Position numbers and translations under genes: made by a program
Shown: positions 505-64,000 of the stretch, piece by piece
How positions within the stretch are numbered: the first letter of the stretch is position 1
How the letters are laid out: each line of letters opens with the position of its first letter
Notes under the pieces: generated by a model
Databases searched by the model: none
Told to the model about the DNA's origin: nothing
The model's input: the letters and a program-made list of their open reading frames with translations, nothing else
NCBI GenBank assembly: GCA_965246885.1
Contig: CBDFFV010000001.1
Location: 8,364-72,363, forward strand
Length of the DNA stretch: 64,000 nucleotides
Reading direction: 5' to 3'
Origin: Abditibacterium sp.
GTDB lineage: Bacteria > Armatimonadota > Abditibacteriia > Abditibacteriales > Abditibacteriaceae

Positions 505-2652
505 ATGAGATTTGTCCGTCCCGTTTTTCTGCTCGCGCTTCTTCTGGCGCCGTCGCCTTTGCGCGGGGTGTGGGGGCAAAGCGCCGCGCGCACGATGCGC
601 TCCGAAGGTTACATCCTTGGCCCCGGCGACGTGTTGCGGATCAGCGTGGCTGGCTTTCCCGAATTCTCGCAGGAAACCCTTGCTGTTCCCCCCGATGGCA
701 GCGCTTCGCTTGCGCGCATCGGCACTATCCGCCTGAGCGGTCGCACCCGCGCGGCGGTGCAAGAGGAAGTACGCCAACGACTCATCGCCCGCGTGCGCTT
801 GCGCGATCCGCAAGTCACCGTCACGCTGTTGACCGTCCGGTCGGGCATCATCGGCGACGCTTCACTGAGCGGCGACGTGCCGCGCAGTGGCAACTTCCCG
901 TTGCACGAAAACGAGCGCTTGTCCTCGCTGCTGGCCGAAGCGGGGCTAAACGACCGCTTGGACGAAAAGCGCGCCACCCTGTCGCGCGCAGGCGCTTCCT
1001 ATGCCCTCGACCTGCGCGGCGCCGCGATGCACCCCGGCTCCAAGGCCGACGTTTTGTTGCGCGCGGGCGATGCCATCGCCGTGCGCACCCTCGCCCCGGC
1101 AAAAATCGTCGTTCTGGGTGATGTCGCGCGACCGGGCGTCTACGAGTTGCACCGCCAGCCCCGCCCCGAAGCGTATGAACTGGGGTTGGCGCCCCGGCTG
1201 AGCGACCTTCTTATCCGAGCAGGCGATTTGGCGTTCCCCGGAAGCGGCGCAGGCACCAGTGGCGGCGGCGCAGGCACCGGTGGCGGCGGCGCAGGCACCG
1301 GTGGCGGCGGCGCAGGCACCAGTGGCGGCGGCGCAGGCACCGGTGGCGGCGGAACGACGGGAGCGGTATCCGGGAGCGCGCCCGCCTCCCCCGGCGCGCC
1401 CGTTTCCTACGCCGCTACGCTTCAAAGGGACGGCGCGCGTTTGCCGCTGGACGTCGAAGCGGCGCGGGATGACGTCTTCGGGCCAGCGAACATCTTTTTG
1501 CACGCGGGGGACACCGTTTCCGTGCGGTTGGTGCGCCCCATCACGGTTTATCTGGACGGCGCAACGGCCAAGACCGGCTCTTTTGAATTGGCGCCGGGCG
1601 CGGGCGTGTTGCAACTGCTCGTTCTGGGTGGGCCGCTTTCCCGCGCGCCGGGCGAACTCAAGGCTTCCATCCGGCGCGGCGACACGACCATGCCGTTCGA
1701 CCTCTCCGCCCTCTTGCTATCGAGCGAGTCGAGCGCCAACGTCCGTTTGCAAAACGGCGACATCGTCCAACTGCGCGAACCCGAAACCGTCAGCGTCAGG
1801 GTCGCGGGCGAAGTCGCCAAAACCGGCCCGCTCAAAGTGCGCCCCGGCGCCACCATCCTCGATGCCCTCCTCGCGGCGGGCGGCGTTTCGTCCAGCACGC
1901 CCGTCCAAAGCGCCCGCCTGAGCGTCTTGCGCCAAGAGGGAGACGGCTCGCAGCGCGTCTACGAGGCCAACGCCGCCGGGATTCTGGGGTTGACCGACGT
2001 TTCCACCAACATGGTGCTCCGCGATGGCGACATCATCAACCTCGCGCGCGGCGAAGACCAAACCGTGTTCGTCGCGGGCCAAGTCGCCACTCCCGGCACC
2101 TATCCGCTTGGAACCGGCGATAGCCTCGCGCAACTCATCGTGCGCGCCGGAGGCGCCAAAGACGACGCGGCGCTGACAAGGGTGCGCGTGTCGCGCCGTG
2201 CCACCGATAAAACGCCTGCGACCGAAGTCACCATAGACGCTTACGACGCCGTCAAAACGGGCGCCCCGCTCCCCTTTGCCCTCAAAGCGGGCGACACCAT
2301 CTCCGTTCCCCTTAACACCAATCAAGTGCTGGCGATGCAAGCGTTCGCCAAACCCGGTTACTACGCCATTCCCGAACGCGGCCAACTGACGCTCTTCGAC
2401 TTTCTCGCCAAGGCTCAGGTCGCGCCCGGAGTGCGCCGTTTGTACATCTCGCAAGCGGACGCCAATGGCAAGATTGACCCAAAGACCACGCCCGTGCGCA
2501 CGATCAAGCTCGACGACATCCCGCGTGGGCGCCAACAGAACTTCGCGTTGGAACCGCGCGAGGTCATCTACGCCGAGTCGCCCAAAGGCCCCAAGACAAG
2601 CCCCTTCCAAGTCTTGTCCACGCTGGGCGCGCTCAGCTTTTTGTTTCCGTAA
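505..2652 (+). CDS. Polysaccharide export protein (Poly_export plus multiple SLBB domains, Wza-like)
   Basis: Signal peptide; YILGPGDVLRISV Poly_export motif; repeated V.V.G.V..PG.Y.L...L..AGG SLBB units. ATG at 505 chosen as start. Confidence 0.85.
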   Translation: MRFVRPVFLLALLLAPSPLRGVWGQSAARTMRSEGYILGPGDVLRISVAGFPEFSQETLAVPPDGSASLARIGTIRLSGRTRAAVQEEVRQRLIARVRLRDPQVTVTLLTVRSGIIGDASLSGDVPRSGNFPLHENERLSSLLAEAGLNDRLDEKRATLSRAGASYALDLRGAAMHPGSKADVLLRAGDAIAVRTLAPAKIVVLGDVARPGVYELHRQPRPEAYELGLAPRLSDLLIRAGDLAFPGSGAGTSGGGAGTGGGGAGTGGGGAGTSGGGAGTGGGGTTGAVSGSAPASPGAPVSYAATLQRDGARLPLDVEAARDDVFGPANIFLHAGDTVSVRLVRPITVYLDGATAKTGSFELAPGAGVLQLLVLGGPLSRAPGELKASIRRGDTTMPFDLSALLLSSESSANVRLQNGDIVQLREPETVSVRVAGEVAKTGPLKVRPGATILDALLAAGGVSSSTPVQSARLSVLRQEGDGSQRVYEANAAGILGLTDVSTNMVLRDGDIINLARGEDQTVFVAGQVATPGTYPLGTGDSLAQLIVRAGGAKDDAALTRVRVSRRATDKTPATEVTIDAYDAVKTGAPLPFALKAGDTISVPLNTNQVLAMQAFAKPGYYAIPERGQLTLFDFLAKAQVAPGVRRLYISQADANGKIDPKTTPVRTIKLDDIPRGRQQNFALEPREVIYAESPKGPKTSPFQVLSTLGALSFLFP
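1244..1352 (+). repeat. In-frame 21-bp tandem repeat x5 encoding (GAGT[S/G]GG)n
   Basis: GCGGCGCAGGCACC(A/G)GTGGCG units start at 1244, 1265, 1286, 1307 and 1328. Confidence 0.95.
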
Positions 2653-2667
2653 CCGCTCTTTCCATTC

Positions 2668-4857
2668 ATGTCGCCTTCATCTTCATCCAATAACTCCCCC
2701 CGCTCCAAAGGGGCGCCCGACGGTGGCGCGTCCGAAAATGGCGCACGCCAAGCGCTCGCGCTCTTTGAAGGCGAGCCGCGCGAGGAGGAAGCGGCGACGC
2801 AAAACGGCAAGGGCGGAGCGCTCGAAGTGGCCGACGACGCGGCCATCCGCGACTTTTACGCGCAACTGGTCACGCTTCTCACCCAAGAGAACGCGCCGCC
2901 CCCACCCAAGCCCAGTTCGCGCGGTTCGCTGCGCTTTGCCCTCAAGCGGCGCTGGCTGCCCGCGCTTGTGCTCGCGGCGCTCACGTTTTTGGGGCTGAAT
3001 CACCTGTTGCGGCCCAAGCACATCAACTACACGGCTTCGGCGCAACTGCTGCTCCCGCCGCGTCCGGTGGTGGGCGCTGCCGATCCGCTCGCCCCGCCCG
3101 AAGCCAACTACGACACCGCCGCGCAGGTCGCGCTCATCGGGTCGGAAGAGATCACCCAAAAAGCGATGACGCGCGTGCCCGCCGACCTGCGCCAAGCCGG
3201 GTGGGGCACGAGAGAGGTTTTCCCGCCCGATGTGCAAGTGGCGTCCGCCTCATCCGACAGCAACAGCAGCCTAATCGAAATCTCCGTTCCTTCGGGCGAC
3301 CCCGACGCCTCACAGTTATTGGCGACCGAACTCATCAACGCTTACACGCAGTTCAATCGGCAACGCGGCGCGGAAACGCGCGACGAGAACCTACGGCGTG
3401 CGAAGTCGCGCGTCACGCAAGTGTCGGCGGCGCTCGAACGGGCGCGCCTTGACCGCGCCAATCTGAAAATTCGCTCCGGCGTGGGCGATGCTGGCATGGC
3501 CCAAGGCAGCGCGGCGGCCAACATCCAGCAACTGCAAAACTCTCTCGATGATGCACGCCGAAGCGCCGCCAGCGCGGGCACTTCCGACAGCACTCTCGCC
3601 ACGCTCCGCAACCAATTGCAAACCACCCAAATCGCCTTGCAAACCGTGTTGCGCGATTTCTTCCCCGACTCCGACCGCGCCCGCGCCGCCCAAGCAGACG
3701 TAGACCGCGCTCAACAGGCCGTCACCGCCCGCGAAGCCGAACTGAGGAGCAACGCCGCATCACAAATCGCCCTTCTCGAAGCCTCGTTGCGCGCCGCGCG
3801 CGCCGACGCCCAGCGCCTGCCCGAAGTCGAGCGCGAGCAAAGCCGTCTCAATGACCGCATTGCCAATTTAGAGGGCGCCTTGACCGCCGCCACCGCCCGC
3901 GAAAACCAACTCGTCCAATTGCGCGACGTTATCGCACAACCTGCCAAGGTCATCCGCTCGCCCGAAGTCGGCTCCAACCAAGGCGTTCAAAAACTCCGCG
4001 CCCTGTTCGCGGCATTGTTGGGCGCGCTCGTGGTGGGATTGGTCGGGGCGATACTATTCGACCGGCTCGACAAGAGCGTGCGGGCCACGCCCGACCCCGA
4101 AACCTTGTGGAATGCGCCCGTTGTGGGCGCTTTGCCCAAAGGCACCGACGACGACACGCTGTTTCGTGCCACGCCCGACAAAAGCCGCGCCGGAGCCGGG
4201 GCGCGCACCCAAAACATCGAGGCGTGCTTTACCGCGCAGAGCAACATCCTCGCCCTTGCGGCGCAAGCCGGGGCGCGCTCCATCCTCTTTTCCAGCGCCC
4301 TGCCGGACGAAGGCAAAGCCGCCAGCGCCGCCAATCTCGCCGTCGCGATGGCGTACGGCGGACGCGAAACCCTCCTCATTGACGCCGACTTCCTCAACCC
4401 CACGCAGCATAAAAACTTCTTGTTGCCCCTCTCGCCCGGTTACGCGCACGTTCTGCGCGACCAGATGCCCTTGTCCGAAGCGATTCGCCCCACGAGCGTG
4501 GCGAACCTGTACGTGCTCACCCCCGGACTCGAAGCGGGGCAGGACGCAGGATTGGTGATGAGCCGTTTGGCGGGCGCGCCGCACACCAAGAACCTTGTGC
4601 TACTCAAGAAATACTTCGATGTCATCGTGATCGATGGGCCGCCGACGGACACCCTCGGCGACGCGCAACTTATCGCGCACTTGGCCGATGCCGTCGTGCT
4701 GGTGAGCGCCGAATCCACTCCGCGCGCCGAAGTGCAGCGCGCGCGCTCGATGCTGCGTTTATCGGGGGCGTTCCTGCTGGGCGTGGTCGTCAACCGCGTG
4801 CGGCGCGGCGAGGTGGCCGACTGGGACAAACACTCTGCCGCCGAAGCGGGGAAGTAA
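2668..4857 (+). CDS. Wzc/GumC-like polysaccharide co-polymerase with degenerate BY-kinase domain
   Basis: Two TM helices flank a coiled-coil; C-terminal CpsD-like domain (LLIDAD, VIVIDGPP). Walker A reads DEGKA and there is no Tyr cluster. Confidence 0.8.
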   Translation: MSPSSSSNNSPRSKGAPDGGASENGARQALALFEGEPREEEAATQNGKGGALEVADDAAIRDFYAQLVTLLTQENAPPPPKPSSRGSLRFALKRRWLPALVLAALTFLGLNHLLRPKHINYTASAQLLLPPRPVVGAADPLAPPEANYDTAAQVALIGSEEITQKAMTRVPADLRQAGWGTREVFPPDVQVASASSDSNSSLIEISVPSGDPDASQLLATELINAYTQFNRQRGAETRDENLRRAKSRVTQVSAALERARLDRANLKIRSGVGDAGMAQGSAAANIQQLQNSLDDARRSAASAGTSDSTLATLRNQLQTTQIALQTVLRDFFPDSDRARAAQADVDRAQQAVTAREAELRSNAASQIALLEASLRAARADAQRLPEVEREQSRLNDRIANLEGALTAATARENQLVQLRDVIAQPAKVIRSPEVGSNQGVQKLRALFAALLGALVVGLVGAILFDRLDKSVRATPDPETLWNAPVVGALPKGTDDDTLFRATPDKSRAGAGARTQNIEACFTAQSNILALAAQAGARSILFSSALPDEGKAASAANLAVAMAYGGRETLLIDADFLNPTQHKNFLLPLSPGYAHVLRDQMPLSEAIRPTSVANLYVLTPGLEAGQDAGLVMSRLAGAPHTKNLVLLKKYFDVIVIDGPPTDTLGDAQLIAHLADAVVLVSAESTPRAEVQRARSMLRLSGAFLLGVVVNRVRRGEVADWDKHSAAEAGK

Positions 4858-4860: not shown

Positions 4861-4943
4861 GCTCACCGTGTGGCGGCTCACCGTGTGGCGGCTCACCGAG
4901 TGGCGGCTCACCGAGTGGCGGCTCACCGTGTGGCGGCTCACCG
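4861..4943. repeat. 15-bp tandem repeat x5.5 between convergent genes
   Basis: GCTCACCG(T/A)GTGGCG repeated from 4861; the last partial unit contains the ABC transporter stop codon. Confidence 0.95.
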
Positions 4944-6848
4944 ATACGACTGCGCTTGCGTTTCAAACAGGTTGGCGTAAAGGCCGCCTTGGGCGAGCAG
5001 TTCCTCGTGCGTGCCGCGCGCGACCAAAACGCCTTTATCGAGGACGCAGATCGAGTCGGCCAAGCGCACCGTCGAGAGGCGGTGCGAGATGAGTAGGGCG
5101 GCGCGGCCTTGCACCAATTCGCGGAACGACTCAAACAGTTCGGCTTCGGCGCGCGGATCGAGGGCGCTGGATGGCTCGTCCAAGATCAGCAGTTGCGACG
5201 GGCGTAAAAAGGCGCGCGCGAGGGCGATTTTCTGCCACTGTCCGATGGAAAGCTCCTCGCCACCCGCGAAGTCGCGGCCCAACAAAGTATCCAACCCTTC
5301 GGGCAAGCGGTCGGCAATACGATTGACGCCCGCGCGATACGCTGCTTCTTCGACTTGGCGGCGCGTGAGGGGTGACATTAGTTCGCGCCCTTCGGGAGAA
5401 ACAACGTCGCTGTCTCTGGGGTGCGTGGCGGGCAAGCGCAGGTCGCCCAGCCAGATGTTCTCGGCGAGGGTGAGGGAATAGTGGTTGTAGTCTTGGAAAA
5501 CCGCCGAAATGCCGCGCCGCCACTCGACGGGGTCGCAGTCGCGCGCGTCCACCCCATCGAGCGCGATGCGCCCGGCATCGGGGTCATACAAACGGCAGAG
5601 CAGCTTGACGAGGGTGGTTTTGCCCGACCCGTTCTCGCCCACAAGCGCCACCACTTCGCCCGGAGCAACCGAGAAAGAGATGTCTTTCAGGGCTTGGCGC
5701 TCGGAGTTGGGATAGCCAAAAGAGAGGTTCTCGACCGTCAAGCCGCTCTTCCAGCGCGTGGGCAACGCCTTGGGAACGGCGGGCGCGACGAGCTTGGGTT
5801 GCAAGTCGAGGAACTGATACAACAGAGACAAAAACGTGGTGTCCTCGTGAAGCGACAAGATGGAGCCGAGGGTGCCTTGCATCGAGCCTTGCGCGCGTTG
5901 CACCGCTCCGAAATACATCACCAAGGCGCCCAGCGAGAGGGTGCCCGCGAAGGTTTTCGAGGCGATATACGCGAGGAGCGCGAAGGTGGGCGCGACGACG
6001 AACAGTTGCACGCTCCCGTCGGCCAGCATGCGCCGCCGCGCCACGCGCAAACGTCCGCTTGATAGCCACGCGCGCATGGCGTCGAAGCGGGCGCTGAAAA
6101 AGGGCGCCATGTCGAACAAGCGCACTTCCTTGGCGAAGGGTTCGAGCGTCAGCAGGTAGTTGAAGTACCCCGCGCGGCGCTCGATGGGCGTGCTTTTCAT
6201 CGTCCATTCCCAAAGAATGGACACAAAGCGCAAACGCACGAACAAGCCCGGCAGCACCGACAAGAACAGCACGAACGGCACAATGGGATGGAGCGTGAAC
6301 AGCAAGGCGCCGATGGCGGCGAGCGAAAAGAGGTTTTGCCCCAAGCTGGTCAGCCCGTTCACGATGCGCGTCGGGCGAAAGGGCGCTTCTTCTTGGGCGC
6401 GATGGAGGGAGTTGAAGAACTCGGCGTTCTCGAAATACTCCAAATCCATGCGCGCCGCCTGTTTTTGCACGAGCGCGCTCATGCGCCGCGACACGACCAG
6501 CCCTTGCCCCTCGCTTACGAACGACGAAGCCGTCGAACACAAAGAGGAAAGAAGCGCGACGCCGCCCGCGAGCGCGATGAGTTCGAGGGAAACGTGCCAT
6601 GCCGCTTCGCGCGCGGCACCGGGCAGGAGCGTCGCCCCGTGCGTAACCGCGTCCACGATGCGCCCCAGCAACCACAACGAGGCGAGCGGCAAGATGGCGC
6701 CCGCCGCCACCAAAAGCAGCGACGCCGCCATCCACCCCGGCCCGCTTGACCAAACCAATTGGATGGCGCGTCCCAATAGTGCCAGAGAGCGCACGCGGCT
6801 CCAGATGCGGTGTTTCACAAAAAGAAGTAGTGTGGTCGAAGCACGCAA
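4938..6848 (-). CDS. ABC transporter permease/ATPase (lasso peptide exporter, D protein)
   Basis: N-terminal TM domain; GENGSGKTT, LSIGQWQ, LLILDE, ISHR. Last gene of the lasso cluster. Confidence 0.9.
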   Translation of the reverse strand: MRASTTLLLFVKHRIWSRVRSLALLGRAIQLVWSSGPGWMAASLLLVAAGAILPLASLWLLGRIVDAVTHGATLLPGAAREAAWHVSLELIALAGGVALLSSLCSTASSFVSEGQGLVVSRRMSALVQKQAARMDLEYFENAEFFNSLHRAQEEAPFRPTRIVNGLTSLGQNLFSLAAIGALLFTLHPIVPFVLFLSVLPGLFVRLRFVSILWEWTMKSTPIERRAGYFNYLLTLEPFAKEVRLFDMAPFFSARFDAMRAWLSSGRLRVARRRMLADGSVQLFVVAPTFALLAYIASKTFAGTLSLGALVMYFGAVQRAQGSMQGTLGSILSLHEDTTFLSLLYQFLDLQPKLVAPAVPKALPTRWKSGLTVENLSFGYPNSERQALKDISFSVAPGEVVALVGENGSGKTTLVKLLCRLYDPDAGRIALDGVDARDCDPVEWRRGISAVFQDYNHYSLTLAENIWLGDLRLPATHPRDSDVVSPEGRELMSPLTRRQVEEAAYRAGVNRIADRLPEGLDTLLGRDFAGGEELSIGQWQKIALARAFLRPSQLLILDEPSSALDPRAEAELFESFRELVQGRAALLISHRLSTVRLADSICVLDKGVLVARGTHEELLAQGGLYANLFETQAQSYR

Positions 6849-7844
6849 TTAGCCCCGCGTTTCGCGCACCAGCCGCGTCACGGTTTCGATGGTTTGCGGC
6901 AACAGCGCGAGGTCGCGGCGGCGCGACAGTTCCCAGACATGGCAGTGAGCGGCTAAGGCTGCGCACGCGCGAAAGTGCGCCACGCGCCGCGCGCCAGTCA
7001 AATACAAGTCACTCCAGCGCGCAGCGAAAGTATGGGGGAGCAACTGCCCCAGCGCTTCTCCCGGCGACAGCGCGCGGGCATCTATGTCGGGACGCGCGGG
7101 GTCATCGTGCGAAGCCAACAGGAAAACGTGTCGCAACGGGCGGGCGGCGCTCGCAAGCGGGGCCATGAAGTACTGCTTGTCTACTAACCCCATGCCGTCC
7201 AGTTCGGGCGCCACGCGCGGGAGGGTGTCGGGCGCCGCCCCAACGACAGCGCGCACCGCGTCCGGCACCAATTTCATCGAACCAAATCCCACGCGCGCGA
7301 GCGGCGCTCCCAACGGCGCGTCGGACGCGAAGTCAAGGGCCAGCACATCGTCGCAAAACAAGGGATAACCCGCAAGCGAAAACGCGGCGCCAAGGGTGGA
7401 TTTGCCTTGCCCCTTGTCGGCGGCAAAAGCGCAGGCAACGGGTTGGCCATCGGCGTCAGTCATTTCAACGGCGCCCGCATGGAGCGCCAACCAACCGCGC
7501 GCTTCGAGCAAAAGGGCCAAAACGCTGCCAAGAAGGGGCACGCGCCACGTCGAAGCGGATGTGCCTTCAAGCGGCTCAACCAAAACGCGCGCGTCGCCCT
7601 CGATTTCAAAGCGGCCCACTTGGGCAAAAAGCAGGGAAGAAGAGTTCTCGGAAAAGCTCAAAACGTTCTCGATGGGGGCGTCGGGCGCGTTTCGTGCTTC
7701 AACTTCGGCGAGTGGTAAAGTCCTGCCCACTTCAATCGAAACGTCAGCGCCCCCACTCGCATCGAACGCGGGCAAATCGGGCAAGGCGAACTGCGATTGG
7801 AAGCGCAGGCCGTAAGCGAAGCGGCGGTCAAGCGGCGGGGTCAT
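6849..7844 (-). CDS. HPr-kinase-like lasso peptide kinase (PadeK/ThcoK-like)
   Basis: LHAGAV, P-loop ADKGQGKST and LFCDD motifs; adjacent to precursors ending in Ser. ATG at 7844. Confidence 0.8.
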   Translation of the reverse strand: MTPPLDRRFAYGLRFQSQFALPDLPAFDASGGADVSIEVGRTLPLAEVEARNAPDAPIENVLSFSENSSSLLFAQVGRFEIEGDARVLVEPLEGTSASTWRVPLLGSVLALLLEARGWLALHAGAVEMTDADGQPVACAFAADKGQGKSTLGAAFSLAGYPLFCDDVLALDFASDAPLGAPLARVGFGSMKLVPDAVRAVVGAAPDTLPRVAPELDGMGLVDKQYFMAPLASAARPLRHVFLLASHDDPARPDIDARALSPGEALGQLLPHTFAARWSDLYLTGARRVAHFRACAALAAHCHVWELSRRRDLALLPQTIETVTRLVRETRG

Positions 7845-7860: not shown

Positions 7861-7902
7861 AAAACAAAAAAGGCCCGCAATGGAGCCTTTTGAGTTTTGT
7901 TT
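7861..7902 (-). terminator. Intrinsic terminator downstream of the lasso precursor genes
   Basis: Minus strand reads AAAAGGC-tccattgcgg-GCCTTTT followed by TTGTTTTT. Confidence 0.65.
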
Positions 7903-8002: not shown

Positions 8003-8146
8003 TTACGAGAGGCTCGTATTAATGAGGCTCACGCTGGAGCCAGCGATCAAAGTGCGGTCGAGTTTGCTTCCGTGAGAGTTCTGCTGGGTGATTTGCGCAA
8101 CGGTGCCATGAACGGTCAGTTGCGGGGTTTGGTAGGATTTTTTCAT
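8003..8146 (-). CDS. Lasso peptide precursor A2 (47 aa): [47 protein letters not shown]
   Basis: Hand translation. YxxPxL...G leader motif, Thr at -2, Asp at core position 9, C-terminal Ser. Not in the ORF track. Confidence 0.88.
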
Positions 8147-8232: not shown

Positions 8233-8370
8233 TTACGAGAACAAGAGGTTCTTTTTGGGAGTGTTCACGGGGAAGGAACGGTCGAGGTTGTCGCCGTCTT
8301 TGTTCCCTTGGGTGATTTGCGCAACGGCGCCGTGAACGGTCAGTTGCGGGGTCTGGTAGGATTTTTTCAT
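8233..8370 (-). CDS. Lasso peptide precursor A1 (45 aa): [45 protein letters not shown]
   Basis: Hand translation. Strong SD (AGGAGGT) upstream; YxxPxL leader, Thr -2, Gly1, Asp9, C-terminal Ser. Not in the ORF track. Confidence 0.92.
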   Translation of the reverse strand: MKKSYQTPQLTVHGAVAQITQGNKDGDNLDRSFPVNTPKKNLLFS

Positions 8371-11382: not shown

Positions 11383-11406
11383 AGAGAATGGATGAGAAAA
11401 TACTGT

Positions 11407-16634: not shown

Positions 16635-16680
16635 CTGGCTTGCAGGGGCGTGGGGAATCATAGCGAGAAATAGCGCGGGC

Positions 16681-52159: not shown

Positions 52160-52190
52160 GCGCCCGCCCTTGCCGCTTCGCGGTTCTCGA

Positions 52191-53348: not shown

Positions 53349-53426
53349 CCTGATACCGCCCCTGTTAAGATAAACCCCCGCCCGTTTCCCATTCTCTGCC
53401 GCGCCCCGACACCGCACCTTTCCGCC

Positions 53427-55663: not shown

Positions 55664-55673
55664 CTCCCGCGTT

Positions 55674-55799
55674 CGATGACAAACGTGCGCCCAGCGATGA
55701 CGGACGTCCGCCACTCAGTGGCGGGCCTCTGCCATCCATCGGCGCACGTCTGGGAACGAGTGACAGACGTCTGGCGCCGCTTGGCGGGCGTCTCTCTTA
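55674..55799. repeat. Degenerate 21-bp-period intergenic array (6 units)
   Basis: CGATGACAAACGTGCGCCCAG / CGATGACGGACGTCCGCCACT / CAGTGGCGGGCCTCTGCCATC / CATCGGCGCACGTCTGGGAAC and two more units. Confidence 0.65.
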
Positions 55800-55819
55800 C
55801 ACTCGCCGTCCTACCTCCT

Positions 55820-56422
55820 ATGCCCACATCGGAAGCTTTAGCGCCCGCCGCCGCCCCGGAAGCGGTGGATTTATCGCGCTACGACAACGCGTGGTTCTCG
55901 CCCGGTCGCGGCCTGCTCGTTCGCACGCTTTGGCACTACGCCAACGTCCTGCTTTTGCAAAACCCGTTCAACCTTTCCTCCCGCTTGCGGGTGGCCGTTT
56001 TGCGCGCGTTCGGGGCGCGCGTGGGGCAGGGCGTCAACATCAAACCGGGCGTGAACGTCAAATACCCTTGGCACGTGGAGATTGGCGACCACGTTTGGAT
56101 CGGCGAGGGCGCTTGGCTCGACTCGCTCGCGCCCATTGCCATCGGCCCGCACGCTTGCATCTCGCAGGGCGCCTATCTGTGCACCGGCAACCACGATTGG
56201 AGCGACCCGGCGTTTGGGCTGCGCGTCGGCCCCATCACCATTGAGCGCGGCGCGTGGATTGGGGCGCGCGCGGTTGTTTTGTCGGGCGTGACCGTCGGCG
56301 CGCACGCGGTCGTTTCCGCCGGAGCCGTCTTATCGCGCAACGCGGAGCCAAACGGCATTTACACCGGCAACCCCGCCCAATGGGTCAAAGCGCGCGTCAT
56401 CCGGGAGCGAAGCGGCGCATGA
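55820..56422 (+). CDS. wcaF: WcaF-like polysaccharide acetyltransferase
   Basis: LRAFGARVGQGVNIKPGVNVKYPW, ISQGAYLCTGNHDW. Confidence 0.85.
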   Translation: MPTSEALAPAAAPEAVDLSRYDNAWFSPGRGLLVRTLWHYANVLLLQNPFNLSSRLRVAVLRAFGARVGQGVNIKPGVNVKYPWHVEIGDHVWIGEGAWLDSLAPIAIGPHACISQGAYLCTGNHDWSDPAFGLRVGPITIERGAWIGARAVVLSGVTVGAHAVVSAGAVLSRNAEPNGIYTGNPAQWVKARVIRERSGA

Positions 56423-57657
56423 AAGTGTGCCTGCTCAGCGAGTATTTCTACCCCGACCGGGCCGGGGGCACGCCGCAAGTGCTGTCCAATCTGTCGCGCT
56501 TCCTGCGGGACAACTACGGCGACGTGGAGTTGGAAGTCATTACCTCGACCAACCTGTATCGCGGCGCGCAAACCAAGCTTGCGCGCTTCGAGAACTGGGG
56601 GGGCATCCGCATTTTCCGCCTCAACACGCCCAAGTCCAACCGCCCCTCGACGCTTTTGCGCTTGCTCGCGGGTGCGGCGTTTTCGGGCGCGACGCTCTTG
56701 AAACTGCTGCGTCGTCCGCGCCCGGACGTGGTGTTCGTGGTGACCAACCCGCCGACGCTGCCGCTTGCCGCGAAGATATATGGGCGCTTGCGCGGCGTGC
56801 CGTATGTGTATCTGGTGCACGACCTGTATCCCGACGTGGCGACGGCGCTGGGCGTTTTGCCCAAAGCGGGCCGCGTCGCGCGCCTTTTCCACGCGGCTCA
56901 GCGCAGTTGGCTTCACGGCGCGGCGCGCGTGGTGGTGTTGGGGCGCTGCATGCGCGACTACCTGAGCGAGTTCTACGAACTGCCGCCCGCGCGGGTCGAG
57001 GTCATTCCCAATTGGTCGGACGAGAGCCTCATCGCGCCGCTTCCCAAAGAAACCGCTTTTCGCCGCGCGCACGGCTTAACGGGGTTCGTGGCGCTGTATG
57101 CCGGGGGGTTCGGGCAATACCAGAACTTCGAGACCATTCTGGACGCCGCCGCCATCCTTCAGCGCGAGGGCGCGGGCGTGACGTGGGTGTTCGTGGGTGA
57201 GGGGGCGCGGCGCGAGCAAATCGAGGCACGCATCGCGGGCGGTCTCTCGAGCGTGCGCCTCTTGCCGTTCGTGCCGAACGGAGAGTTTAGCGACCTGTTG
57301 GCGTCTGCGGACGTCTCGCTTGTCACTCTCGAACGCGGCGCCGAAGGGCTGGGCGTGCCGTCGAAGTTTTACAACATCCTCGCGTCGGGCCGGGCAACGG
57401 TGGCCTTGGTTGCGCCGGGCTGCGAAGTTGAGCGCGTGCTTTCCGAGGCCGATTGCGGCGTGCGCGTCGCGCAAGACGACCCCGCCGCCCTCGCGCAAAC
57501 CATGCGCGAACTCAGCCAGCGCCCCGCCGAACTCGCCCGCATGGGCGCCAACGCCCGTCGCGCGCTCCTCGACCATTACACCTTGGGCCACGTCGGGCGT
57601 TCGTTCCACGACGCCTTTGAAGAGGTGATCCGCGACGCCCGCCACGCGCCGCGCTGA
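56419..57657 (+). CDS. GT4 glycosyltransferase (WbuB/WcaI-like)
   Basis: SEYFYPD, VHDLYPD, IPNW, VPSKFYNILASG. Confidence 0.88.
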   Translation: MKVCLLSEYFYPDRAGGTPQVLSNLSRFLRDNYGDVELEVITSTNLYRGAQTKLARFENWGGIRIFRLNTPKSNRPSTLLRLLAGAAFSGATLLKLLRRPRPDVVFVVTNPPTLPLAAKIYGRLRGVPYVYLVHDLYPDVATALGVLPKAGRVARLFHAAQRSWLHGAARVVVLGRCMRDYLSEFYELPPARVEVIPNWSDESLIAPLPKETAFRRAHGLTGFVALYAGGFGQYQNFETILDAAAILQREGAGVTWVFVGEGARREQIEARIAGGLSSVRLLPFVPNGEFSDLLASADVSLVTLERGAEGLGVPSKFYNILASGRATVALVAPGCEVERVLSEADCGVRVAQDDPAALAQTMRELSQRPAELARMGANARRALLDHYTLGHVGRSFHDAFEEVIRDARHAPR

Positions 57658-57676
57658 CGAGGCGTGTTTCCCATTT

Positions 57677-58783
57677 ATGACGATTCCAGACGCGCCGCGC
57701 TCCTCCGGCACCACCCCGAAAGCATGGCCCGCGCACTACGAGATGATCAACGGCTGGCGCGGGCTGGCGGCGGCGGCAGTGGCCATTGCCCACATCACCG
57801 AGAACAAGCCCCCGTTGGGACATGTGGCGGTGATGGTGTTTTTTGTGATCAGCGGCTACTGTATCGCCGCCGCCGTCCAATCATCGCAAAGCCGGGGACT
57901 GTCTTTTTGGACGTTCATGGGGCGCCGGATGCGCCGCATCTACCCGCCGTATTTCTTCTCGCTGCTCTTTTTCTTCGTCACCCGCCTCGCCAAGTGGCGG
58001 CTCACGGGCGTGAATCAACTCAGCTATCCGCCTGCGACGTGGATTCAAACGTGGACGCTCACGCAGTGGCTCAACGTGTTGGCGCACCCCACGCCTTATG
58101 CGTTCGACAACTCGCACCTGATGGTTTCCGCCCATTGGACGCTTGGCTATGAGGAGCAGTTTTACCTTGTCTTCGCGCTGCTGATGGTGTTGGCGCTGCG
58201 GGCCAAAAGGGATGTGCGCGTTTTGGTGTTGGGGTTGTTTGGCATCGCGTTGGGGTGGAACCTCGCCTTTCCGCGCCTCTCTTGTGGCCTCTTCATTGAC
58301 TACTGGGCGCACTTCGCGGTCGGCGCAGTGGTATTCTACCGCTTGTGTCGCCCGTTCAGCCGCCGCTTTTGTCAAGTCGTTGACTGGGGTTTGGTGGTGA
58401 CCGCCATTTTGTGCGGCGTCCTCGCGTGGCCGAGTTACCTGTTGCCTCCGCAGCGTTTCGTCGCGCAAGAGTTTTTCGCGGTGTCCGTGTTCGCGCTTTT
58501 GCTCATCGGCGGGCGCCGCTTCGACGACGTCTTCAAGAAGGCGCCGCTCGCGCGCCCCTTTCTCTGGCTGGGCACCATTACCTACAGCTTGTACCTAACC
58601 CACCAGTTCAACCTCAACCTGAGCGCTTTCGTCGCCTCTCATCTGCTCCGGGGCCACTTCCCTTCGTGGGTTGTCGTGTTACTTCAGTTGGTGGTGCTTG
58701 TCCTGCTCGCGGCGCTGTTCTGGGTTTTCTTTGAAAGGCCGTTCCTCAACAAGCGGCTGGCGCCCGCTCCGCCAGCGCCCTGA
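57677..58783 (+). CDS. Acyltransferase-3 (OafA-like) membrane O-acyltransferase
   Basis: NGWRGLAA, FFVISGY, RR.RRIYP, WTLGYEEQFY, SLYLTH. Confidence 0.9.
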   Translation: MTIPDAPRSSGTTPKAWPAHYEMINGWRGLAAAAVAIAHITENKPPLGHVAVMVFFVISGYCIAAAVQSSQSRGLSFWTFMGRRMRRIYPPYFFSLLFFFVTRLAKWRLTGVNQLSYPPATWIQTWTLTQWLNVLAHPTPYAFDNSHLMVSAHWTLGYEEQFYLVFALLMVLALRAKRDVRVLVLGLFGIALGWNLAFPRLSCGLFIDYWAHFAVGAVVFYRLCRPFSRRFCQVVDWGLVVTAILCGVLAWPSYLLPPQRFVAQEFFAVSVFALLLIGGRRFDDVFKKAPLARPFLWLGTITYSLYLTHQFNLNLSAFVASHLLRGHFPSWVVVLLQLVVLVLLAALFWVFFERPFLNKRLAPAPPAP

Positions 58784-58816
58784 TTGCGCGCGGGTGTTCA
58801 AACTGGGGTGCTTTCT

Positions 58817-59692
58817 ATGCCCCAACTCGTTTTCTCCGGCGCCACTTCCGGCACAGGCGTGCGCGTCGCGCAACGTCTGGTGGAAAGATTCGGCGCCGAC
58901 AACATCACTTGCTTGGTGCGCGTTTCCTCCGACACTACCCCCTTGGAGCGGCTGGGCGTGCGCCTCGAAAGGGGCGATGTGACTGACGGCCACTCCCTCG
59001 CTCGCCTCCTGACCGCAGAGACGCTGTATCTGGACATGACGCACCCCAAGTTCTACCCGCTTTCGCTGGAAACCATCCGGCAGAGCGCGCTCAAGCGGGC
59101 GTTTTTCGTGACCACGACGGGGATTTTCTCCCGCTACCACCACTGCTCCGACATCTACAAAGACGGCGAGGCGCGCATCCGGGCGTGCGGGCTGGCCACC
59201 ACCATCTTGCGGCCCAGCATGATCTATGGCTCGGTGCGCGACAAGAACATGAACCGCCTCATCCGCACCCTTGCCAAAGCGCCCGTCTTTCCGTTGTTTG
59301 GCGCGGGACGCAGTTTGATGCAACCCGTCTTCGTGGACGACCTCGCGCAGGGCATTGTGGCGGCCATTGGCAACCCGGCGACGGCAGGCCAAGAATATAA
59401 CCTCGCGGGGCCGGTTGGTTTGTCGTATCGGCGCATCGTCCACACCATCCTGCGGGAACTGGGGCGGCGCGTGACGTTACTGAACGTCGGCCTGCCGTTG
59501 GCGGCGGGCATCGCGGGCGTCGGGGAGCGCGTCCCCGGCTTTCCCATTAAAAAGGAACAGGTGTTGCGCCTGCTCGAAGACAAAGTCTTCGACATCTCTC
59601 CGGCGCGGGCCGAGTTGGGCTACAACCCGCGCCCGTTCGCGGAGGGCATTGCGCTCGAAATTGCCGAAATGCGGGAAGTGGGCGCACTTTAA
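58817..59692 (+). CDS. NAD-dependent epimerase/dehydratase (atypical SDR)
   Basis: SGATSGTG, TILRPSMIYG, QPVFVDDLA. Confidence 0.8.
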   Translation: MPQLVFSGATSGTGVRVAQRLVERFGADNITCLVRVSSDTTPLERLGVRLERGDVTDGHSLARLLTAETLYLDMTHPKFYPLSLETIRQSALKRAFFVTTTGIFSRYHHCSDIYKDGEARIRACGLATTILRPSMIYGSVRDKNMNRLIRTLAKAPVFPLFGAGRSLMQPVFVDDLAQGIVAAIGNPATAGQEYNLAGPVGLSYRRIVHTILRELGRRVTLLNVGLPLAAGIAGVGERVPGFPIKKEQVLRLLEDKVFDISPARAELGYNPRPFAEGIALEIAEMREVGAL

Positions 59693-60280
59693 ATGAAAAG
59701 CTCCCGCCATTACCGCGCGCTCAAGCACACGCTCGACTTGCTCGCCGCGCTCGCGCTGCTCTTTCCGCTTCTGCCGCTTTTGGGCGTGCTGTGCTTGGCC
59801 ATTCGGCTGGACTCGCGCGGCCCTGCGCTGTATCGGCAAAAGCGCGTCGGGCGCTTCGGGCGGACGTTCATCATCCTCAAGCTGCGCTCGATGAAGAGTG
59901 ACACGCCGGTGCTTTCGACCGAAGAGATGGAGCGCGCGGGGATTTCGCCGTTCACGCGCTTGGGGCCACTGCTACGCCGCTCCAATCTGGACGAGTTGCC
60001 GCAGATTTTCAATATCTTGAAGGGCGAGATGAGCTTCATCGGCCCGCGTCCGGCGCTTCCAACGCAAACCGATGTCAACGAACTGCGCGCGAAGCAGGGC
60101 GTGGCAAGCGCGCGTCCCGGCATCACCGGGCTGGCGCAGGTCATGGGCCGCGACGACCTCGCAACGCCGGCCAAGGTGGAGTATGACGCGCGCTATTGCC
60201 GCGAACTGAGCCTGCGGCTGGACGCGCGCATCCTGCTAAGCACCGTCGGCGCCGTCTTTTCGGGGCGCGGGAACAAATAA
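59693..60280 (+). CDS. Priming phosphoglycosyl transferase (bacterial sugar transferase)
   Basis: K.RSM, LDELPQIFNILKGEMSFIGPRP, RPGITGLAQV. Confidence 0.92.
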   Translation: MKSSRHYRALKHTLDLLAALALLFPLLPLLGVLCLAIRLDSRGPALYRQKRVGRFGRTFIILKLRSMKSDTPVLSTEEMERAGISPFTRLGPLLRRSNLDELPQIFNILKGEMSFIGPRPALPTQTDVNELRAKQGVASARPGITGLAQVMGRDDLATPAKVEYDARYCRELSLRLDARILLSTVGAVFSGRGNK

Positions 60281-60297
60281 AACCGTTGCAACGGTTT
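60280..60297. other. 18-bp perfect palindrome between convergent genes (double AACNGTT)
   Basis: AAACCGTTGCAACGGTTT. Confidence 0.85.
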
Positions 60298-60301
60298 CCC
60301 T

Positions 60302-61657
60302 TTACCACCGCTCCCAGCGCTTGTGGATGGCGCGGGCGGGCTGGAGCACCCACCAGAGCGCATTGAGGCCCAGTGGGAGCGCGACCTCCGCGCGTTCTTT
60401 GGCGGTGGGGGTGGTCGCCAAGTGCCAATAGAAGCCCAGTCGCTTCCAAGGCCGGTCAATGGCTTGGCTGAGCAACTGATTGGTGCTCCATATCGCGGGC
60501 GGTTCCTCGCCTTCGTGGGCTTCGAGGGCATTTAACCACTCGGCTTCTTCGGGTTCGTGCCAAAGGAGAGAGGCGCGCAGGCGACTTGCCAAGCGCAGCG
60601 CATACGGCTGGCTCGACAGCCACGTGTCAACGGAAAGCGGCAACGCGCTGCCCATCACGTCGCGCACCAAGCACAAACACAGCGCCATCATGCGCTCGAT
60701 TTCCCGCTCGCGCGCCGCCACCAAAACCGCCGCCCAGTCCAAATCGGGGTTGCGCTCCAACAACTGCGCCACATCGCACAACCACAACAGGCGCTCCCAC
60801 AAGTGTTTGGCGCCATGCACCGCCAAGATGAGCAGCAAGTCGCACGGCGCCAGCGCCAGTGCCCCTGCCACTTCGCTGCGTCCGCCCAACGGGTGCAAAC
60901 CGCGCTCGACGCTTTCGTAAAAGAAGTCGAACGGCAGACACGGGGAGGTGATGGCCCAGTGCAGTTCGACGGCCAGACCTTGCGGGAAGAGCGCCGCCAC
61001 GTTCGGGGGCGCGGGGCGCTGCAGATTGAAGACCGAGTCGCGCCGCAAGTGCTCGCGCTCTTGCGAAGGGGAGAGCTGCGCCTCGTGCGCATAACCCAAC
61101 TCGCGCATCAGGGCATGGGCGCGGCGCACATCGGCGCGCGGCACCAGTAGGTCTATGTCGGCGGACGGACGCACCATACCGTTGCCATACAAAGCGAGCG
61201 CCAGCGTTGGCCCCTTGAACGAGACAACAGGCACCCCCGCCGATTCCAAGTGGTGCGTGACGTGGGCCAACTCCTTCATTAACTCCTTGGAATGGAGCGC
61301 CATCTCGCCGAAATACTGACTCATCGCCACCACCACCTGAGGGGGCACCGCCTTCCACCGACGCGCGCTCAAATGGCGCCCCAATAGCCCGGTGACGCGG
61401 TGTTGCTGACAAAGCAGCAGCACCAACCCCCAGCGAAGCGGAAGCGTGGCGCGCGGTGATGCGCGGCGCCGGTCGTCGGGAAACGGTTGCCCGCGTTCGA
61501 GCAGTTCATCGAAGCGCCGCGCCCGTTCGCCGGTCAATTGTATGCGCGCGCCCAACAACACGAACTCCGCTTCGGGCGACAGCGCCGAGCGAAAGGGCGC
61601 GTCGGGTAAATAATCGCCGGACGTGACACGGGCGGGCAAAGCGAAACGGTCGGTCAT
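60302..61657 (-). CDS. Nucleotidyltransferase family protein (NTP_transf_5-like; the type seen in lasso/PqqD clusters)
   Basis: SFKG..LA..LY, RPSADIDLLV, VELHW, HGAKH, WLCDVA. Confidence 0.8.
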   Translation of the reverse strand: MTDRFALPARVTSGDYLPDAPFRSALSPEAEFVLLGARIQLTGERARRFDELLERGQPFPDDRRRASPRATLPLRWGLVLLLCQQHRVTGLLGRHLSARRWKAVPPQVVVAMSQYFGEMALHSKELMKELAHVTHHLESAGVPVVSFKGPTLALALYGNGMVRPSADIDLLVPRADVRRAHALMRELGYAHEAQLSPSQEREHLRRDSVFNLQRPAPPNVAALFPQGLAVELHWAITSPCLPFDFFYESVERGLHPLGGRSEVAGALALAPCDLLLILAVHGAKHLWERLLWLCDVAQLLERNPDLDWAAVLVAAREREIERMMALCLCLVRDVMGSALPLSVDTWLSSQPYALRLASRLRASLLWHEPEEAEWLNALEAHEGEEPPAIWSTNQLLSQAIDRPWKRLGFYWHLATTPTAKERAEVALPLGLNALWWVLQPARAIHKRWERW

Positions 61658-61755
61658 AGAAGTGGCAAAAATAATGGTAAGGCTGTAGAGAGACTGAAAG
61701 ACGCAGTTAAACGAATCGCGCGCTCGCGGCGCACTTTTAGCGGGTCGCGGGCGCG

Positions 61756-62904
61756 CTATGCGCCGGTCAGTTGCGAGTAAATGGCCTTCATCCCCTCGGC
61801 CACGCGCGTCCACGTATACCCTGCGAGAACGGCCCGCCGCCCCGCCTCGCCCCGGAGCCGCCCTTGCGACGGGTCGCGCGCCCACCCGTTCAAGATTTCA
61901 GCAAGGGCGCGCGCGTCGCCTTCAGGAAATATCTGCCCGCCCTCGCCCACGACGTCGGGGATTGCCCCAGAATCGCTGCCAATGGCTGGAACCCCGCACG
62001 CGTTAGCCTCAATCAACACGCGCCCGAACTGCTCTTTCCAGCGCGCCGTCGTGCGCGAGGGCAACACGAGCGCATCCAAAGCCCCCATCAACGGCGCTAA
62101 CTCCGGCAGGGGCAGCGCCGCCCGCAACTGCACCCGCGCGCTTAAACCCAGCCGCTCGATTTGCGCTTCGAGGGCTGGCAAAAACTCGCCGCTTCCCACA
62201 ATGGCGCAGCGCACCGAAGCGTCGCAGAGCGCAAGGGCGTCCAGCAAGTCGGCGATGCCCTTTTCTTCGACCAAGCGCCCGATGTAGCCGCACCAAAACT
62301 CCCCCTCGCCCCAGCCCAGTTCGGCGCGTTTGGCGACGCGCTCGTCGGGAGGGAGCGGACGAAACAGATCGGCGTCCACCGCGTTGGGAACAACGCGGGC
62401 CGGGCCGGTGTAGCCCTTGCGCCGCACGATCTCCAACGCCTCAAAAGAGCGCCCCACCACGAAATCCGCGCGCCGCAACACTTGGGCGCGCATCGGCTCG
62501 AAGGGCGGCGGCAACGTCTTGTCTATGTTCTGCTCGGTTTCGCACACGACGGGCACGCGCGGGCACACTTTGGCCCGCATCCGCAGCGTGTGGAGCGAAA
62601 CAAAGCTCCAAGGCTCCTCCCAAAGGTCAATGACGTCGGGCCGGAACTCGCGCAAGAGCGCCGCCATGCCGGGATAAAAGTGCAGATACGACTGCGCCGG
62701 GCCGCACCACGCCATCTTGACGGGCTGCACTTCCAAGCGAAACGGCGCGCTTTCGGGCACGTCCGCGCCGCGCCACTTTCCGTAGTGCATCCACTTTTCA
62801 GGCGTTAGCACGCACAACTCGACGCCCGCGCGCGCCAGTTCGACCGCTTTGGGCTGGCCTTCGGTGCGCGACTGGCAGGTGTGGGAAACGAGCAGAACTT
62901 TCAT
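61756..62904 (-). CDS. GT4 glycosyltransferase
   Basis: YIGRLVEEKG, WKEQFGRVLIEA. Confidence 0.9.
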   Translation of the reverse strand: MKVLLVSHTCQSRTEGQPKAVELARAGVELCVLTPEKWMHYGKWRGADVPESAPFRLEVQPVKMAWCGPAQSYLHFYPGMAALLREFRPDVIDLWEEPWSFVSLHTLRMRAKVCPRVPVVCETEQNIDKTLPPPFEPMRAQVLRRADFVVGRSFEALEIVRRKGYTGPARVVPNAVDADLFRPLPPDERVAKRAELGWGEGEFWCGYIGRLVEEKGIADLLDALALCDASVRCAIVGSGEFLPALEAQIERLGLSARVQLRAALPLPELAPLMGALDALVLPSRTTARWKEQFGRVLIEANACGVPAIGSDSGAIPDVVGEGGQIFPEGDARALAEILNGWARDPSQGRLRGEAGRRAVLAGYTWTRVAEGMKAIYSQLTGA

Positions 62905-62907
62905 GGC

Positions 62908-64000
62908 TCAAGAGTGCACGACTTGGCGATAAACCGCGAGAGTTTGGCTCGCCATGCGTGCGGCGGAAAAGCAGTCCCGCAACCGCTCAAACCCCGCTTC
63001 GCCCATCGCGGCAGCGCGCGCGGGGTCGGCGAGCAGCGTTTCAAGCGCGTCGGCGAACGCCAAAGGGTCGCTTGGCGGCACCAGCAAACCCGTTTCGCCC
63101 GCGCGCACGATTTCCGGCGGGCCACCGGCATCCACCGCCACCACCGGCTTGCGTTGCGCCATCGCTTCCAAAACCGCCAACCCGAACGGCTCGGCCACAC
63201 TTGGCAACGCGGCCACCTGCGCAGTGCGCAGTATGGCAGCCGCGCGCGGCGTCCAGCCCGCCAGATGGACAAATCCCGCCGCGCCTTGCTCCTCGATGAG
63301 CGCCAGAAGCGCCTCTTTCTGCGCGCCCTCGCCCGCCAACACCGCGCGAATGGGCGGCAGGGGCGCGCGGCGCGCGTTGAGTAGGGTCATTGCCTTCACG
63401 AGCGTTGGCAAATCCTTCTCGCGTTCCAAACGCGCGACACACGCGACTTCGGCGCGTAGGTCGGGCGGCAGGTCGCTTGTATCCGGCGCTCCGACAGGAA
63501 TTTCAATGCCGTTGTGCACCACCGACACGCGCTCGGCTTCCACGTCGCTCCTTTCCAACAGCGCGTGCGCGACCGCGCGCGAAATGGCGATATGGTGGGC
63601 GATGCCGCTTTCAACGGCGCGGTGCACCCCGTTTTGCACGGCGGCCTTTGGGCCGGTCGCCGTCGCGTGCGCGGGTTCGATGAAGTGCTGCGTCGCTATA
63701 CACGCGCCGCGCCCACCCAATTTCACCGCGAGCGCCCCCCACAGCGCCGTGCGCCCGTTATGCACGTGGACGATGTCCAACTGGCGCCGCCGCAAGCGCC
63801 GCGCGAGGAGAAGCGCCGTGTTGGGATCCCACGTCCCACGCCGCGCGATGGCAAGCGTCGGGATGGCTTCCTTGCGGGCGCGCTCCCACAGCGCCGCGCC
63901 GCGCGGGGTAGCAATCGTTACCTCGACTGGGCGCTGCCCCTCCTCCATCGGTAGTGCTCGCAGCGCCCGCGCAAGCGAAAGCACATACGATTCGGTGCCC
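62908..64000 (-). CDS. GT4 glycosyltransferase (5' end beyond the window)
   Basis: VARLEREKD, EPFGLAVLEAM; frame stays open to the window end (GTESYVL). Confidence 0.88.
   Translation of the reverse strand, partial: GTESYVLSLARALRALPMEEGQRPVEVTIATPRGAALWERARKEAIPTLAIARRGTWDPNTALLLARRLRRRQLDIVHVHNGRTALWGALAVKLGGRGACIATQHFIEPAHATATGPKAAVQNGVHRAVESGIAHHIAISRAVAHALLERSDVEAERVSVVHNGIEIPVGAPDTSDLPPDLRAEVACVARLEREKDLPTLVKAMTLLNARRAPLPPIRAVLAGEGAQKEALLALIEEQGAAGFVHLAGWTPRAAAILRTAQVAALPSVAEPFGLAVLEAMAQRKPVVAVDAGGPPEIVRAGETGLLVPPSDPLAFADALETLLADPARAAAMGEAGFERLRDCFSAARMASQTLAVYRQVVHS

Follow-up and report, generated by a model that had tools for sequence, protein, structure and literature searches.

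The window analysed here, a 64,000-nucleotide stretch of an Abditibacterium genome assembled in two contigs, corresponds to positions 8364-72363 of contig C2 (72,363 bp) and encodes a lasso peptide operon among genes for surface polysaccharide assembly. The content, order, co-occurrence and co-transfer of these two sets of genes point to a probable phosphorylated and glycosylated lasso peptide, which would be made alongside a separately built polymer. Contig C2 carries repA and parA together with nine iteron-like repeats of 18 nt, has no tRNA, and ends in a 7-nt overlap at which joining restores a GT4 glycosyltransferase (GT) reading frame. It is therefore very likely a circular plasmid, and one very likely given over mostly to surface glycan. 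The lasso operon lies on the minus strand in the order GT4, B1, B2, cyclase, precursors A1 and A2, HprK-like kinase and MsbA-like ABC exporter, and converges on the wza1 and wzc1 genes. Counting a nucleotidyltransferase (N) encoded elsewhere on the plasmid, the lasso set B1/B2/C/A/K/D/N is complete and its catalytic residues are intact.

Two precursor peptides are predicted. Precursor A1 (8233-8370, minus strand; 45 aa) consists of a 21-aa leader and a 24-aa core starting with Gly1, and precursor A2 (8003-8146, minus strand; 47 aa) of a 21-aa YxxPxL leader and a 26-aa core that starts with Gln1 and also contains Ser3. Both leaders have a YQTPQL motif and Thr at position -2, and both cores have Asp9, so the YxxPxL, Thr-2 and Asp at 7-9 signature of lasso precursors is present in each. 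A duplicated leader region of 102 nt (84% identical) is common to the two genes. Both cores end in Ser, as do all 13 precursors found in seven lasso-bearing genomes of the family. The recognition element (RRE) protein B1 (11095-11382, minus strand) matches PqqD (PF05402, 76.6 bits) and the TbiB1 structure (E 3.5e-11), and the leader peptidase B2 (10577-11053, minus strand) scores 66 bits against NF033537 (cut-off 33). The best match of the cyclase C (8535-10580, minus strand), which has Asn_synthase and GATase domains, is NF033535 at 455 bits, below the cut-off of 525; we interpret it as a lasso AsnB-like macrolactam cyclase because it is placed between B2 and the precursors. Another AsnB-type gene, at 41004-42914, was considered as a second cyclase and rejected, as it scores better as an exopolysaccharide (EPS)-type amidotransferase and has no lasso neighbours. 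The kinase (6849-7844, minus strand) gave no match in a single-sequence Pfam search; a profile of 10 homologs matches HPr kinases (E 1e-7), with His121, Lys147, Asp164 and Asp165 invariant among them, residues that agree with the His-Lys-Asp-Asp lasso-kinase motif as described in the available text of PMC9266682. A terminator-like hairpin, a consensus match only, occupies 7868-7891 on the minus strand between precursors and kinase. The ABC exporter (lasso protein D; 4938-6818, minus strand), identified by domain searches, has orthologs, 50-85% identical, that come after the kinase in six relatives. Assignment of the operon to the linear polyphosphorylated peptide (LPP) class was rejected, given that the cyclase and B2 are present and that the operon holds no further gene that could be SipW-like.

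The gene heading the lasso operon encodes a WbaZ-like GT4 with an Arg-rich tail of DRR repeats (11407-12909, minus strand; domain and structure searches). It ends 24 nt ahead of B1 (11382) on the same strand, as the earlier note on this DNA had stated, and the gap is 12-36 nt in all seven lasso-bearing genomes of the family. A terminator scan of the minus strand from 11095 to 12909 listed no site, and a promoter scan of the window found no match on the minus strand; we infer that GT4 and B1 are co-transcribed. The nearest solved relative is a fragment of the WbaZ mannosyltransferase, and the enzyme likely adds an early sugar of a lipid-linked glycan. It is single-copy in all 13 genomes of the genus, lasso-bearing or not, and occurs in 20 of 27 family genomes; the copies fetched from 13 lasso-less genomes mostly head, or lie inside, glycan loci of varied type. 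A dedicated lasso glycosyltransferase is thus unsupported, since the GT4 and a matching operon also occur without lasso genes. The sole copy of this genus-wide gene sits here on the 72-kb glycan plasmid, whose loss may therefore be difficult. The GT4s linked to lasso genes make up a separate clade. Their C-terminal tail (11407-11830 here) has DRR repeats in 7/7 lasso-linked GT4s and in genome G022, and the repeats are absent from four other lasso-less copies aligned. The tail partly fits the c-di-GMP-binding CSP motif DRR-x11-(R/K)RxxD given in the available part of PMC7382256, with the last Asp missing, and a connection to c-di-GMP may be taken as a lead only.

On the other side of the lasso genes, Wza1 (505-2652, plus strand; Poly_export and SLBB domains) is an outer-membrane polysaccharide export protein whose gene adjoins the lasso genes in five relatives (on one contig), and it is followed by the co-polymerase Wzc1 (2668-4857, plus strand; domain search). 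Wzc1 has an altered Walker A motif (GKA) and lacks the C-terminal tyrosine cluster of an autokinase, and is possibly a pseudokinase co-polymerase. Among the 27 family genomes, close orthologs (E<=1e-100) occur in only the seven that bear lasso genes; the tyrosine cluster is absent in at least six of these seven, and GKA or GKD is found in four of the six shown. Both Wzc2 and the chromosomal Wzc are canonical, with the tyrosine cluster present, and lasso-linked Wzc proteins of other phyla are mostly canonical as well. Wza2 and Wzc2 (16811-21178) form, with a UDP-sugar dehydrogenase, a minus-strand group at 15327-21178 (domain search). The earlier note had placed the lasso genes between two Wza/Wzc modules; both pairs are there, but the regions fetched from six relatives did not show Wza2/Wzc2 or the dehydrogenase next to lasso genes, and we rejected the arrangement as a conserved design because just Wza1/Wzc1 is conserved.

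The glycan operon linked to the lasso genes begins beyond the plasmid join. Two GT4 genes at 61756-64000 (minus strand; domain search) continue into C2:1-7191, which holds wzx, GT4s, a GT2 and a wzy-like gene, giving the order wzx-GT4-GT4-GT2-wzy-like-[join]-GT4-GT4-nucleotidyltransferase. The Wzy_C match is weak (25.8 bits, cut-off 31.7), and a polymerase and a ligase both fit. Group 1 capsules and EPS of the Wzx/Wzy-dependent type are made with a flippase, a Wzy_C-family membrane protein, GT2 and GT4 enzymes, Wza and Wzc, and a Wzx flippase implies a lipid carrier. That set of flippase, polymerase- or ligase-type membrane protein, GTs, Wza and Wzc is present here; unlike the standard type, the lasso-linked block has no priming transferase, a family-wide trait, besides the atypical Wzc1. 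A lipid-priming transferase is encoded elsewhere in all 27 family genomes (here on the chromosome, C1:1848453). The lasso-less genome G009 has the operon GT4-wzx-GT4-GT4-GT2-wzy-like-GT4-GT4, 37-64% identical where matched, in which there are no lasso genes, nucleotidyltransferase or priming transferase. The lack of a local priming transferase was therefore rejected as evidence for a peptide primer, as lasso-less loci are also without one.

The last gene of the operon encodes an NTP_transf_5 nucleotidyltransferase (60302-61657, minus strand; PF14907, 181 bits), and its position after two GT4 genes agrees with the earlier note, which had located it among the polysaccharide GTs. On the circle, about 15.6 kb, including the join, separate it from the ABC gene of the lasso operon. 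Asp167 and Asp169 are invariant among 26 homologs, and the predicted model (predicted local distance difference test 87.6) has a Pol-beta nucleotidyltransferase fold. A fold search returned Pol-beta-type nucleotidyltransferases only (best Z 12.5, 10.8, 10.4 and 10.3, among them MenT1 at 12.5, LnuA at 10.8 and ANT(2'') at 10.3), a fold that does not fix the reaction; the protein is a putative PsmN/BsfN-like enzyme. In the genus, NTP_transf_5 scores over the Pfam cut-off in 6/6 lasso-bearing genomes versus 0/7 others (lasso-bearing being defined by a lasso-type cyclase at E<=1.7e-162, and the other seven being 79-95% complete), counts that amount to about three events that are not independent, because five of the six lasso-bearing genomes form one clade on the GyrB tree. 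In G002, G010 and G012 the gene and the cyclase are 30-34 kb apart; it comes directly after the ABC gene in G014 and one gene later in G004, and the G014 protein groups with that of the window (FastTree support 99%; G004 was not in the tree). This co-occurrence, together with the ortholog after the ABC gene in G014, supports assigning the nucleotidyltransferase to the lasso system. One locus of genome G022 (L059:4173-12087; genome 93% complete) has an NTP_transf_5 gene in one run with wzx, the ortholog of the GT4 and rml-type genes; the cyclase query found no match in G022, and the locus is a possible lasso remnant or a possible peptide-free use of the nucleotidyltransferase.

Three modules, namely GT4-B1-B2-C-A-K-ABC, wzc1-wza1-GT4 and the run from wzx through GT2, the wzy-like gene and two GT4s to the nucleotidyltransferase, are syntenic in G002, G010 and G012. 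The block is split over two contigs in G003, with rep/par genes within, and is rearranged in G004 and G014; in G012 it sits on a 7.4-Mb contig. G002 also has a P450-reductase fusion gene between the lasso kinase and ABC genes (L030:9697-12885). On the GyrB tree G004 is sister to the lasso-less G009 and G011, whereas the one GT4 it has falls among those of the lasso-bearing clade, and placement with G009/G011 is rejected by an approximately unbiased (AU) test (p 6.5e-7; 19 sequences, G001 left out, with the group named after an earlier GT4 tree had been seen). Because these two positions conflict, the lasso and glycan genes likely moved together as one block. Two other loci differ: G047 has a lasso cluster without glycan neighbours, and in G051 (L060) two RRE genes, an HprK-like kinase, an ABC gene, a nucleotidyltransferase and a short precursor-like open reading frame, with no cyclase seen, are flanked by a priming transferase and wzc/wza.

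The pairing of lasso and glycan genes extends well beyond the family. We examined the best 80 of 586 cyclase relatives in GTDB, a scope that applies to all GTDB counts given here, and dropped the two closest to leave 78 loci. Genes for Wza, Wzc, Wzx, Wzy or a priming transferase were found within ~10 kb at 25/78 loci, and at 22 of the 53 loci of at least 17 kb, across nine phylum-level groups; on this genome's chromosome 3% of positions lie as near to such genes, a baseline over which these loci are favoured because the glycan profiles, seeded from the C2 plasmid, were partly trained on the scored loci, and distant GTs may be missed. Where a glycan gene abuts a lasso gene (15 loci) it is a GT4, wzc, wza, priming transferase or epimerase gene, and 10/78 loci carry their own priming transferase. 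As a control, 151 Sphingomonadales genomes were searched for B2, which gave 63 matches in 44 genomes, from which 60 loci were fetched. Glycan genes accompany 9 of 16 loci with both cyclase and nucleotidyltransferase, five of them with wza, wzc or a priming transferase, versus 0/32 cyclase loci without kinase or nucleotidyltransferase and 0/5 loci with a kinase and no nucleotidyltransferase. B2 loci at which no cyclase was detected have glycan genes in three of seven cases. Fisher tests on these counts gave p 7e-6 and 0.003, values overstated by kinship. Of 19 marker proteins Pfam confirmed 18, and none of the 71 neighbours taken from 8 of the 32 kinase-less loci matched a glycan family. The contrast between nucleotidyltransferase and kinase is confined to this one order, because export or priming genes also occur at 8 of 26 GTDB kinase loci without a nearby nucleotidyltransferase. 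The earlier note had joined the two sets of genes from this window; across relatives and phyla the link is real, exceeds the control and appears to have been transferred as a block.

Other lasso-related loci were seen along the way. Methanobacteriaceae archaea (L140, L150, L152 and L176) have cyclase and kinase clusters, three of them with B1/B2 and a nucleotidyltransferase and one beside wzx and GT4. In two Sphingomonadales genomes (L205 and L208), B2-like genes have GT4, wzc and wza as neighbours, and neither a cyclase nor a kinase was detected in the surrounding 10 kb.

The rest of the window is occupied by plasmid functions and by other sugar genes. The plasmid origin (13424-15124, minus strand; RPA PF10134 and repeat search) consists of repA and the upstream repeats, which are in direct and inverted orientation and do not occur on the chromosome, and it separates the lasso operon from wza2/wzc2. 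A plasmid database search at E<=1e-40 gave a single match, to an archaeal plasmid. A second Wzx/Wzy polysaccharide cluster (33132-60280, plus strand) encodes ManC, Gmd, the AsnB-type amidotransferase and its own priming transferase, and appears to be a passenger on the same plasmid; as a block it was not seen beside lasso genes in the relatives' fetched regions, one epimerase in G014 excepted. The nucleotide-sugar supply genes to which the earlier note had drawn attention do exist in the window (ManC, two Gmd-type genes, a UDP-sugar dehydrogenase and a PglF-type gene), but none was seen beside the lasso genes in those regions of six relatives. A sugar-use block at 21425-30467 includes GH81-like and GH2/CBM11-like hydrolases, LacI and AraC regulators and a DUF1559 pilin-like gene; LacI and pilin-like genes also border the GT4-lasso operon in G002, G003, G010 and G012. 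Two contig runs spanning 44001-64000 listed no differing letters, which has no bearing on expression.

The closest known system is the psm cluster for pseudomycoidin from Bacillus pseudomycoides, with A, B1, B2, C, an HprK-like kinase, a DxD NTP transferase and an ABC exporter, an Asp9 ring and a C-terminal Ser (PMC6993621). The psmN gene is inside the lasso operon, whereas here the nucleotidyltransferase ends a GT operon; also unlike psm are the two precursors, the Gram-negative-type Wza/Wzc context and the plasmid location (PMC6993621). PsmN, for which ANT(2'') served as the modelling template and a pair of Asp residues is essential, gave in Escherichia coli mono- and di-hexosylated phosphopeptide (+162/+324 Da) with no cluster GT; neither paeninodin nor pseudomycoidin had antibacterial activity in the reported tests (PMC6993621). 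According to the text available of a 2026 report, paeninodin-like and LPP clusters are embedded in capsular polysaccharide loci of Bacilli, where kinase, NTP transferase and MsbA-like exporter recur as they do here, their roles are given as unknown with a biofilm or envelope function speculated, and in P. alginolyticus lasso B1 and an EPS gene were induced together (PMC13381572). Unlike the LPP clusters, the operon described here has no signal-peptidase LPP module, and its leaders have Tyr (YxxP) rather than the Trp favoured by paeninodin RREs (PMC13381572). Among Gram-negative bacteria, the bsf cluster of Bradymonas sediminis is, in the part of its description available, a similar seven-gene set (A, B1, B2, C, D, K, N), but BsfK phosphorylates Ser3 and the bsf leader has Ile at -2, in contrast to the Thr at -2 and terminal Ser found here, and instead of a glycan locus the bsf cluster has ribosomal genes and an FG-GAP gene at its flanks (PMC10368454). 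Glycosyltransferases were counted in 36% of rumen lasso clusters in what was available of PMC7533575. The Bacilli report, covering Bacillota, already has the pairing in print and may already cover wider co-occurrence in its Supplementary Data 2 and Figs 3 and 23; no kinase-less lasso control was found in its available text (PMC13381572). Reach beyond Bacilli, such a control and co-transfer were not found in the literature searched. Among literature titles, in a search that most subscription papers lay outside, none dealt with a peptide-primed glycan or with lasso peptides of the Abditibacteri* lineage.

Taking these comparisons together, we suggest, with a probability of roughly 0.58, that the locus specifies a pseudomycoidin/Bsf-type phospho-glyco lasso peptide that would be co-expressed with a separately built Wzx/Wzy polymer and likely has an envelope or biofilm role. 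By analogy, the products are likely two lasso peptides in which the C-terminal Ser is phosphorylated and then capped with one or two sugars. The kinase, judged from PadeK and PsmK, would (poly)phosphorylate the terminal Ser of A1 and A2; B1 and B2 would cut off the 21-residue leader and C would close the ring between residue 1 and Asp9; the nucleotidyltransferase, like PsmN, could use a metal site at Asp167/Asp169 to put a hexose from a nucleoside diphosphate sugar on the phosphate; and the ABC protein would export the finished peptide. Calculated monoisotopic masses for A1 are 2657.36 after cyclisation, 2737.32 with one phosphate, 2899.38 with phosphate and hexose and 2979.34 with diphosphate and hexose; the corresponding values for A2 are 2666.40, 2746.37, 2908.42 and 2988.38. 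The B1-side GT4 and the other GTs would likely extend an undecaprenyl-PP-sugar from the chromosomal priming transferase. That the polysaccharide is probably built separately on the usual lipid carrier follows from the GT4 in 13/13 genus genomes, the lasso-less operon of G009 and the priming transferase in 27/27 family genomes.

Several observations weigh against this interpretation. The basis for an envelope or biofilm role, which we consider probable, is gene neighbourhood, and five of the six lasso-bearing genomes in the genus comparison are of one clade. Within ~10 kb there is no glycan gene at 7/16 Sphingomonadales and 12/33 long GTDB loci with cyclase and nucleotidyltransferase, about 40% of such loci, and an envelope role is therefore not obligatory. 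What the earlier note had set against its own idea, homologous lasso clusters that are routinely free of glycan genes and a product that is only phosphorylated, is thus found by half, in these loci. The nucleotidyltransferase closes a GT operon here, and G022 and G019, both negative with the cyclase query, have NTP_transf_5 genes in their glycan loci, so the enzyme could act on glycan. Among its characterized or named counterparts, LppN was without detectable effect in Bacillus subtilis in the available text of PMC13381572, and BsfN is given as uncharacterised in that of PMC10368454.

Hitch-hiking or shared regulation only, in which a diffusible signal or defence peptide, mainly phosphorylated, uses the polysaccharide promoter and the mobile block, is rather unlikely. 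The plasmid location, the rep/par genes inside the block in G003 and the dedicated ABC exporter would suit it, as would the lasso clusters without glycan neighbours, including that of G047. Surface-glycan loci are also often swapped. Against it, lasso and glycan genes are linked repeatedly, in nine phylum-level groups, in step with the nucleotidyltransferase, and none of the 32 kinase-less Sphingomonadales loci has a glycan neighbour, several of them being beside transfer- or plasmid-type genes.

The earlier note had gone further and proposed that the GT machinery extends the peptide as an envelope component or primer. A Ser-PP-hexose could mimic undecaprenyl-PP-hexose, so that the GT4 and its partners would extend it, or the Wzy_C-family protein would ligate it, with Wza1/Wzc1 exporting a peptide-capped glycan. 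Diphosphorylated pseudomycoidin bearing a hexose exists (PMC6993621), and in P. alginolyticus native products went undetected by mass spectrometry, for which the authors, in the text available, suggest possible further sugar changes (PMC13381572). The separate clade of lasso-linked GT4s, which travelled with the lasso genes and have the special DRR tail, the confinement of the atypical Wzc1 to lasso-bearing family genomes and the block without a priming transferase point the same way. We nevertheless regard a peptide primer or anchor as improbable: GT4s of this family, and a corresponding operon that likewise has no local priming transferase, occur without lasso genes, every family genome has a stand-alone priming transferase, and some of the GTDB lasso loci carry their own. 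The abutting glycan gene varies from locus to locus, the flippase implies a lipid carrier, and lasso-linked Wzc is mostly canonical elsewhere. What stands of the earlier proposal is the lasso-glycan link itself, the place of the nucleotidyltransferase in the lasso system and, by homology to pseudomycoidin, a likely phosphorylated and hexosylated C-terminal Ser. A broader version, in which lasso peptides with such nucleotidyltransferases are a widespread and so far unrecognised part of surface-glycan systems and the Ser-PP-sugar peptide is a soluble lipid-carrier mimic, extended by or ligated to the polysaccharide, leaving via a dedicated Wzc1/Wza1 pair without the tyrosine cluster and under c-di-GMP control through the GT4 tail, likewise seems an unlikely one.

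It is very unlikely that the nucleotidyltransferase decorates the polysaccharide by LicD/FKRP-like phosphodiester transfer and that the lasso peptides are phosphorylated only, because, although the gene is the last of the GT operon in G000, G002, G003, G010 and G012 and GT4-adjacent in the cyclase-negative G022, and FKRP is among the fold matches (Z 7.1, root-mean-square deviation 3.8, 146 aligned), no such gene is present in G009, whose glycan operon stands without lasso genes, its ortholog is inside the lasso operon in G014, FKRP ranks below ANT(2'') and LnuA, and PsmN acts in a peptide pathway (PMC6993621).

The roles of phosphorylated lasso peptides and PsmN-type chemistry are standing questions (PMC6993621 and, in its available text, PMC13381572). 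To these the locus adds a polysaccharide link that is found far outside Bacilli and outlasts horizontal transfer; in one order, the Sphingomonadales, it goes with the nucleotidyltransferase more than with the kinase and does not extend to classical lasso clusters. Named clusters of Mesorhizobium, Sphingomonadales and cyanobacteria carry the same pairing. A peptide joined to the polymer would amount to a novel means of initiating or anchoring a surface glycan, and if it acted as a soluble carrier mimic, a ribosomal peptide would be a cap, anchor or regulator of exopolysaccharide. Under the phospho-glyco lasso peptide reading that we favour, the two peptides of Abditibacterium would probably serve in the envelope or in biofilms beside a polymer built on its usual lipid carrier.

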